Positions 39,359 to 39,775 of a stretch of DNA of 64,000 nt are shown here, in pieces (the stretch's first letter is position 1; each line of letters starts with the position of its first letter). The notes below the pieces were generated by a model, which was not told the origin of the DNA, ran no database searches, and saw only the letters and a list, made by a program, of their open reading frames with translations. The DNA comes from Escherichia phage RB14. The position numbers were made by a program, and so were the translations under genes. The stretch lies in sequence record NC_012638.1; one strand, written 5' to 3'.

Positions 39359-39403
39359 TTAGTACCTTATATAAATTATAATACATTTTATGAAGCTAAA
39401 TAA

Positions 39404-39775
39404 TCAATACGGTTTAGCATCAAATTTTCTCTCAATTTCAGGTGTGAAATATAATTCTTTACCACGTTTGGAAAAGCGACCAATAATATGATAATTATTC
39501 TCATCAAACGTGATATTACCAATATCCATAGCTTTCAACCAAATATCGATATTTCTATCCAGCTTTATGTCAAAATTCCAATACGGAGAACTATTACCGA
39601 AAATACTGCAAGCGGATTCAGTGAAACAACTGCTATAAATCTTGTCTTTAGGAACTACTAATTGATAGACGCCTTTAATAAACTGAGGACCCTGCCATTT
39701 AGGTTGTTTCGCGTCTTTTTCTAATAGAATAGGGTAATAATTAAAATTCATATTTTCCACCCCGCGGTATTTCAT
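39404..39775 (-). CDS. Hypothetical protein encoded in the frd-td spacer
   Basis: 123-aa ORF from ATG 39775 (115 aa from SD-preceded ATG 39751); no recognisable motif. Confidence 0.5.

Follow-up and report, generated by a model that had tools for sequence, protein, structure and literature searches.

Between frd and td, the genes for dihydrofolate reductase and thymidylate synthase, Escherichia phage RB14 carries a small open reading frame (ORF) that is missing from T4. We examined it in a stretch of 64,000 nucleotides (nt) of the RB14 record NC_012638.1, here called the window, which is a segment of a T-even-type (Tequatrovirus) phage; its best match in the phage collection is 96.9% identical over 20 kb, and none is identical. 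On the minus strand the order is gene 32, small ORFs upstream of frd, frd, the ORF, td, nrdA.2, nrdA.1 and nrdA (Table 1). The frd stop and the td ATG are 382 nt apart (39359-39740), and positions 39359-39775 are exactly the 417 nt missing from T4, in which the frd TGA overlaps the td ATG (TATAAATGAAACAATACC) without an ORF between them. A preliminary description of the window had stated this T4 overlap correctly and had seen the ORF-bearing gap, at a slightly short 380 bp, and it named the locus as the one in the window that the T4 gene map explains least. We find instead that the ORF is a real, conserved small gene, already annotated as td.1 or RB32ORF229c, that its presence is the majority state in T-even phages, and that it represents an accessory gene of the ordinary, polymorphic sort rather than a novel type of element. 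We further propose that the gene probably arrived as a cassette in a junction that had previously been fused, as it still is in T4. Throughout, orfA is our name for the gene of the td.1/RB32ORF229c family.

Results

A megablast search with the locus matched 537 phage records, 357 of them over the whole segment. Using the protein as query, tblastn returned 361 records at 90% identity or more, including T2, RB3, RB5-10, RB18, RB32, RB51, AR1 and many recent isolates, and 218 further records below 60% identity, with frd as the neighbour at every locus examined. The ORF was 100% identical to its counterpart in BECP11 and 97.6% identical to those in T2 and RB3 by tblastn, and residues 12-119 of its 123-amino-acid (aa) form match the profile PHROG 1928 (E 1.1e-35). 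Most records that carry the gene annotate it as 'hypothetical protein' and a few as 'putative homing endonuclease'. It is labelled td.1 in the T2H record AY262132.2 and RB32ORF229c in RB32 and RB51, the RB51 entry with the remark 'flanked by 9 bp repeat'. Annotated coding sequences in T2, RB51, RB3, slur03 and T2H are identical to it or nearly so. The td.1 of T2H (equal to RB32ORF229c of RB32 and RB51, Shfl2p237 and PHROG 1928) is the same gene with the same position and borders as in the window, and the protein that the window td.1 encodes does not differ from those of T2 and RB3 (100% identity), with 98% identity to that of RB51. As at the other family loci examined, the gene follows frd immediately and precedes td, all three in one orientation. 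In the literature searched, that on the frd/td junction included, we found no paper discussing RB32ORF229c or td.1, and a search with four profiles found no paralogue elsewhere in the window.

The reading frame is under clear constraint. Between the window and T2, td.1 differs by 12 synonymous and 0 non-synonymous substitutions; dN/dS (the ratio of non-synonymous to synonymous rates) is 0.00-0.22 across the compared allele pairs and 0.07-0.14 (about 0.1) against a 63%-identical homologue, and the frame is conserved down to 27% identity. An accidental open frame in a non-coding spacer or RNA element would suit a sequence without a known motif and so AT-rich that ORFs arise easily in it. However, this reading is already refuted by the substitution pattern, and both the deep conservation of the frame and a confident structure prediction speak against it, so that we give it practically no credence. 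An RNA element was also rejected on the basis of Rfam, in which a search at E values up to 1 returned only two implausible eukaryotic families, far below threshold. The preliminary description had named two findings that would count against an inserted gene, namely an ORF annotated at the same site in T4 and a frame that is not conserved among related phages; T4 has no such ORF and the frame is strongly conserved.

The conserved product has 115 aa, given that the upstream ATG at 39775 is closed in other alleles and that homologue alignments start late. In T2, RB51, RB3 and a48 this ATG is followed by AAA TAA, which closes the frame at codon 3, and in distant homologues the alignment begins no earlier than residue 8-17 of the longer, 123-aa form. 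The longer frame is open only in the small allele group of the window, which includes slur03/08/14, BGP, BYEP02, BECP11 and Ec_O157kw. Hence, the 123-aa ORF of the preliminary description exists as a frame, but its ATG was rejected as the true start, a stop codon closing it in most alleles, whereas the alternative 115-aa reading from the ATG at 39751 is borne out, with the Shine-Dalgarno sequence GGGGTGGA upstream. The resemblance of the first residues of the 123-aa frame (MKY) to those of td (MKQY), which had been pointed out there, is real and reflects the direct repeat AAATGAAA at 39770-39777 and 39353-39360. This repeat of the target is present at both ends of the segment, as 8 bp in the window and as the 9-bp TAAATGAAA in T2 and RB51.

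Alleles of the window group differ from td.1 of T2H and RB51 by an additional two A's ahead of the left repeat and by TACC where those have TAAC; as a result, Frd is 11 residues longer and the upstream ATG opens the 123-aa frame. Five A's precede the junction ATG in the window, slur03 and RB3, and the two additional bases shift frd past its TGA, giving a Frd of 204 aa compared with 193 in T4. The frd stop thereby lies 8 nt inside td.1, an overlap of 11 nt. A sequencing error behind this tail was rejected: the allele is annotated in RB3/5/6/7/9/10 and slur03, the 204-aa Frd itself likewise in RB3 and slur03, and the tail is in frame in 177 phage records. The 11 extra codons beyond the end of T4 Frd were thus described correctly in the preliminary account, but their link to the insertion was not, as the tail is a separate effect of the two extra A's (AAAAATG versus AAATG). 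Frd tails of other genera have different sequences that reflect overlap with the next gene, and the tail in the window appears to have no function of its own. The change in the A-run restores a stop/start overlap as in other genera and may couple translation.

Table 1 Positions of the genes and sequence features around the frd/td junction in the window
Feature	Positions	Strand	Details
gene 32	41690-42598	-	
frd (dihydrofolate reductase)	39741-40355	-	204 aa; Pfam DHFR_1, PHROG 316; comparison with T4
Five-A run	39775-39779	-	three A's in T4, T2, RB51 and RB69; alignment
Direct repeat, left copy AAATGAAA	39770-39777	-	9-bp TAAATGAAA in T2 and RB51
11-codon frd tail and TAA stop	39741-39776	-	
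ORF, long reading	39404-39775	-	123 aa, starts MKY
Eight upstream in-frame codons (MKYRGVEN)	39752-39775	-	begin at vestigial copy of the td start (ATGAAA)
td.1 (orfA)	39404-39751	-	115 aa from conserved ATG; TGA stop 39404-39406; 13.6 kDa, isoelectric point 8.5
td.1-td spacer	39359-39403	-	45 nt
Direct repeat, right copy TAAATGAAA	39353-39361	-	holds functional td start codon 39356-39358
td (thymidylate synthase)	38498-39358	-	intronless, 286 aa, MKQYQ...; Pfam Thymidylat_synt E 7e-96

The family is also present at this same position in other genera. Relatives of the gene, 27-47% identical, follow frd immediately in Kanagawavirus (PEi26), Enterobacter phage MY742, Jiaodavirus (KPV15), Gelderlandvirus (CGG4-1), Marfavirus (Potts1), Moonvirus, Winklervirus (CHI14) and Kagamiyamavirus (EcS1), and two metagenomic contigs, L014 and L015, carry a 63-66%-identical orfA at the corresponding site. 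In all of these relatives except KPV15, in which the order is frd-orfA-td, orfA is followed by a second gene, orfB, giving the arrangement frd-orfA-orfB-(orfC)-td, where orfC is an unrelated gene of approximately 68 aa that precedes td in some genomes. The products of orfA and orfB are paralogous (hhalign probability 99.4% over ~98 columns). Members of orfB (for example PEi26 ORF-252, Moon gp253 and CHI14 ARW57658) have the QKKW, HGxY and GRFxKxG motifs in common with td.1 but, unlike it, contain an insert of ~20 residues (PTIxxYKRNP) after the first strand, and orfB is missing from the window apart from a possible 45-nt relic. Word-indexed protein searches found few relatives of td.1 (3, then 24), and a profile search run exhaustively over 1.8 billion representative proteins gave 51 matches, about 45 of them credible; five were long repeat proteins, of which the three that were checked proved spurious. 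The td.1 family is small and confined to T4-like phages. Two annotations next to these homologues deserve mention in their own right. The Potts1 frd homologue (L008 888-1493) is annotated as 'putative single stranded DNA-binding protein' but aligns as a dihydrofolate reductase and is probably mis-annotated, and KPV15 frd (L005 1074-1520) is annotated with 148 aa, without an internal stretch found in other Frd proteins, and may be truncated or mis-assembled.

Among T-even-type records the frd/td junction occurs in three states: it holds td.1 in 361, orfC in about 135 (for example fFiEco06, pSs-1 and Sf21, a state also seen in Dhakavirus JS98) and is fused, with frd abutting td, in only 32. The fused records comprise T4 and its laboratory copies, RB55, RB59, vB_EcoM_112, G28, F1, FN, FL12, FL18, HY03, SG1, G2133 and JEP6. 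Sister genera are also fused, with TA(T/C)AAATGAAA as in T4: RB69 (Mosigvirus) reads GTGTATAAATGAAACAATACC, PSD9 (Dhakavirus) GTATACAAATGAAACAATACC and TH41 (Gaprivervirus) GTATATAAATGAAAAATTATC, and frd abuts td in all sampled Mosigvirus records. Carriers of td.1 keep the same junction at their left border, TATAAATGAAATAAC, which consists of the fused junction and the first two td codons followed by a stop (ATG AAA TAA). This dead td start sits in a stretch of 14-18 nt that is absent between frd and the ribosome-binding-site region of orfA in PEi26 and L014. The left repeat is probably what remains of a frd-stop/td-start junction that was fused in the ancestor.

A further line of evidence comes from the discordance between orfA and its flanking genes. 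For the pairs window-L014, L014-PEi26 and window-PEi26, orfA identity is 63, 43 and 43%, compared with 48, 60 and 48% for Frd and 82, 91 and 80% for Td. The window orfA is 63-66% identical to a metagenomic lineage whose Frd is only 48-49% identical, and the closer relatives of that lineage reach only 43-54% orfA identity to it. Hence, the T-even orfA groups with a lineage that is not the closest one for the flanking genes. A precedent for such exchange is orfC, a 68-aa gene that lies exactly at the frd-stop/td-start junction of fFiEco06 (L016 2058-2264) and JS98 (L021 401-607), is bounded by an ATGA motif and is likewise polymorphic and laterally transferred; its protein is unrelated to that of td.1, and no examined Tequatrovirus record holds both cassettes. 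The orfC DNA is 98.6% identical between JS98 (Dhakavirus) and fFiEco06 (Tequatrovirus), whereas the adjacent frd and td are 64% and 80% identical, and in the Dhakavirus PSD9 the site is empty, a pattern that points to recent inter-genus transfer into the frd/td junction. More distant orfC copies (about 43% identity) occur in Phapecoctavirus phages.

Given the fused junctions of the sister genera, the relic at the left border, the discordant orfA similarity and the orfC precedent, insertion is favoured over deletion, and td.1 was probably inserted into a previously fused junction. As the family is old at the locus within the subfamily, the event would be a re-occupation of an empty site. This polarity agrees with the preliminary description, which had suggested insertion by recombination at the td initiation region. 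The opposite polarity, in which the ORF is ancestral and was lost between the 9-bp repeats TAAATGAAA by T4 and independently by the RB69, JS98 and Gaprivervirus lineages, would turn the textbook frd/td overlap into a deletion scar. Homologues between frd and td in many Tevenvirinae genera speak for this scenario, as does the rarity of the fused junction in Tequatrovirus (32 records, mostly T4 and laboratory copies, versus 361); short-repeat deletions are well known in T4, and one between these repeats yields precisely the T4 sequence. It does, however, need the identical deletion to have occurred independently no fewer than four times (in the T4-type, Mosigvirus, Dhakavirus and Gaprivervirus lineages), and neither the dead td-like start within a segment missing from PEi26 and L014 nor the discordance of orfA is explained by it. 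On the strength of the synteny in distant genera, a deletion in T4 had been our main explanation until the fused RB69, PSD9 and TH41 junctions and the orfA discordance demoted it to a rival, and we now regard an ancestral ORF with later deletion as a rather unlikely, though serious, alternative.

Insertion nevertheless faces several objections. The polarity is read by parsimony over few sampled genera. Deletion between the 9-bp repeats regenerates the exact T4 junction every time, which makes repeated loss mechanistically easy, and since AAATGAAA often occurs at gene starts (26 copies in the window versus 13.7 expected), little can be concluded from the repeat on its own. The great age of the family at this locus is clear and, taken alone, speaks for presence as the older condition. 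Finally, the trace of orfB calls for caution. The 30 nt before the td ATG match the 3' end of PEi26 orfB at 17 of 30 ungapped positions and at 13 of the 20 closest to td (alignment anchored on the td ATG; uncorrected P about 0.001), and the orfB start codon survives inside the 3' end of td.1. The right border of the segment thus has the look of a native orfB/td junction. The td-proximal 30 nt of the 45-nt spacer are probably a relic of orfB, although the match is only suggestive, at P about 0.01, after correction for roughly 10 comparisons.

The history that we propose, and consider probable as a whole, is the following. Positions 39359-39775 would be a 417-bp gene cassette in a once-fused frd-stop/td-start junction TATAAATGAAAC, which is still fused in T4 and three sister genera, and the cassette would consist of one functional gene, td.1, and ~45 nt resembling the remains of a deleted orfB. 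Entry into the T-even ancestor would have occurred via recombination with a related phage that kept the old frd-orfA-orfB-td order. On the right, homologous exchange would have taken place within the strongly conserved 5' end of td; on the left, the crossover would have been illegitimate, just past ATGAAA, the first two codons of the recipient td. Such a left crossover would leave a dead ATG AAA (TAA) at the left border together with the 9-bp direct repeat, and a later +2 slip in the A-run would have removed the frd stop in the window allele.

A different explanation for the patchy distribution is that the ORF mobilises itself as a selfish gene, for instance a free-standing homing endonuclease. 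The label 'putative homing endonuclease' is attached to it in AugustSocin, WilhelmHis, FelixPlatter, AlbertHofmann, FriedrichMiescher and ValerieMcCarty04, its presence is polymorphic, direct repeats flank it and the I-TevI target in td is 0.5 kb away. However, the window protein contains no GIY-YIG, HNH, LAGLIDADG or other nuclease domain, and, in keeping with the remark of the preliminary description that the ORF has no recognisable motif, no Pfam family matches it at E values up to 1. Across 57 family members there are only scattered single-member Pfam matches, each below the family threshold, and NCBIfam and PADLOC gave nothing. At 115 aa the gene is roughly half as large as seg and mob of T4 and is predicted to encode a small barrel, and the family is stable at one locus across genera at 27-47% identity. 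The seg and mob genes of T-even phages are, like td.1, intergenic, patchy among close relatives and found in the gene-32-to-nrdB region, but td.1 lacks a nuclease domain, is half as large and shows no sign of moving by itself. Candidate terminal inverted repeats amounted only to 8-12-nt matches at chance level, and a transposase or integrase domain was not found in Pfam. The homing-endonuclease label was rejected on the absence of a nuclease domain in Pfam and NCBIfam, the barrel model and the lack of terminal inverted repeats, and we consider a self-mobilising gene very improbable.

Separately from td.1, the window td is a mosaic. Over the first 180 nt its identity to T2 and RB51 is 92-100%, but over nt 181-600, a stretch in which T2 and RB51 share 85-100% with one another, it is only 60-87%, and the 3' end diverges as well. 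In the I-TevI cleavage and homing region the window reads TACCAAAGAAGTGTAGATGTTTTCTTGGGATTGCC and T4 TATCAACGCTCAGTAGATGTTTTCTTGGGT, with many silent changes that might affect I-TevI sensitivity. Downstream, nrdA.2 (DUF5496, 87 aa; 38238-38501, minus strand) overlaps the td stop by 4 nt, in contrast to a 20-nt gap between td and nrdA.2 in T4, and nrdA.1 (37958-38284, minus strand) encodes 108 aa and overlaps nrdA.2 as in T4.

For the td.1 protein, AlphaFold2 gave a model with a predicted local distance difference test score (pLDDT) of 78 from 25 aligned sequences, and a model with pLDDT 92.6 and a predicted template modelling score of 0.85 from 57 sequences. Both show the same order of elements: strands 6-12, 27-34, (48-50) and 62-64, helix 68-77, and strands (80-82), 86-96 and 99-104. 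The product thus appears to be a small basic beta-barrel with the order b1-b2-b3-helix-b4-b5, which resembles that of the oligonucleotide/oligosaccharide-binding (OB) fold, and we treat this fold class as a lead and not as a result. Nucleic-acid-binding domains of the OB fold (RPA14/32, Stn1/Ten1, SSB, S1 and HIN) are the closest known fold systems, with no significant fold match. In Foldseek searches against the PDB nothing scored better than E 0.33, with RPA, Stn1/Ten1 and OBody near the top, and searches against viral models returned only uncharacterised proteins of T4-like phages. Two points count against the assignment of fold and function: the fold searches were run with the first model (pLDDT 78), the weaker of the two, and td.1 has no match in Pfam, NCBIfam, PADLOC or PDB sequences (PDB profile searches gave none below E 0.01). 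Residues W19, G27, Y29, G91, F93, K95 and G97 are invariant or nearly so whether 12, 19, 25 or 57 sequences are aligned, the window protein has all of them, and R92, within the GRFxKxG motif, is conserved in most members.

What the protein does can be narrowed down only tentatively. We infer that td.1 is a dispensable, conditionally useful accessory factor and not a core enzyme of thymidylate (dTMP) synthesis. As a working hypothesis it may bind nucleic acid or a protein partner, to which the conserved aromatic and basic residues and the isoelectric point of 8.5 are the only pointers, and our confidence in any such binding is low. A closer tie to its neighbours would have td.1 work together with Frd and Td, perhaps as an adaptor of the deoxynucleotide-synthesising complex or as a regulator of td/frd expression. 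This finds support in its strictly conserved place between frd and td, with overlapping stop and start codons, in at least eight genera, and in conserved aromatic and basic residues that fit a nucleic-acid-binding surface. However, T4, RB69, JS98-like and orfC-type phages make dTMP without td.1, the gene is gained, lost and exchanged like an accessory gene, and tight synteny of unrelated small genes is common in T4-like early regions; we hold such a partnership to be unlikely. A little less doubtful is a role in host-specific takeover or counter-defence, for which the gene would be retained only with hosts that make it useful. Presence and absence vary among near-identical genomes, lateral exchange is evident, purifying selection is strong where the gene is present, and the early or middle region is rich in small accessory ORFs. 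On the other side, td.1 resembles no protein with a known function, and experiments give no hint in this direction. The empty PADLOC result says little here, as that resource covers defence and not counter-defence proteins.

The gene is presumably co-transcribed with frd and td, given their same orientation and minimal spacing. The spacer before td contains a perfect TATAAT (39375-39380), 10 nt downstream of TTTAGCTTCA (39391-39400), which we take to resemble the MotA box of T4 middle promoters, and a generic consensus scan of the spacer gave TTGATT-18-TATTAT. The spacer is identical in T2 and RB51 and differs by one base in RB3. A td-proximal promoter in the spacer, missing from T4 at this position, is possible from these motifs.

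Discussion

Here, we show that the ORF between frd and td would be a false lead if taken for an unexplained insertion: the gene is annotated in hundreds of T-even genomes and is not peculiar to the window genome. T4 is a poor reference at this locus, given that the textbook frd/td overlap is found in only 32 of about 530 T-even-type records. Although rare, the fused state is probably the older one because it is common to sister genera. Beyond what the database records hold, the analysis adds the paralogue orfB, an old frd-orfA-orfB-orfC-td cassette in the subfamily, a junction with three states, the clear transfer of orfC between genera and a confident structural model for an orphan family. 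The junction is a tidy example of cassette exchange.

A broader reading joins two ideas, namely that the ATGA frd/td junction is a preferred landing site for cassette swaps (td.1, orfB and orfC) and that td.1 founds a new OB-like family with a specific role. As a landing site, the junction may offer the near-invariant 5' end of td for one crossover and microhomology for the other. The role may be, for example, counter-defence or regulation of td/frd mRNA, which would explain why the gene is retained in most natural T-even phages and not in laboratory T4. Both parts together are speculative and, in our judgement, improbable. Should td.1 have a host-specific role, it would be an easy target for study, being dispensable, only 115 aa long and naturally present in some phages and absent from others.

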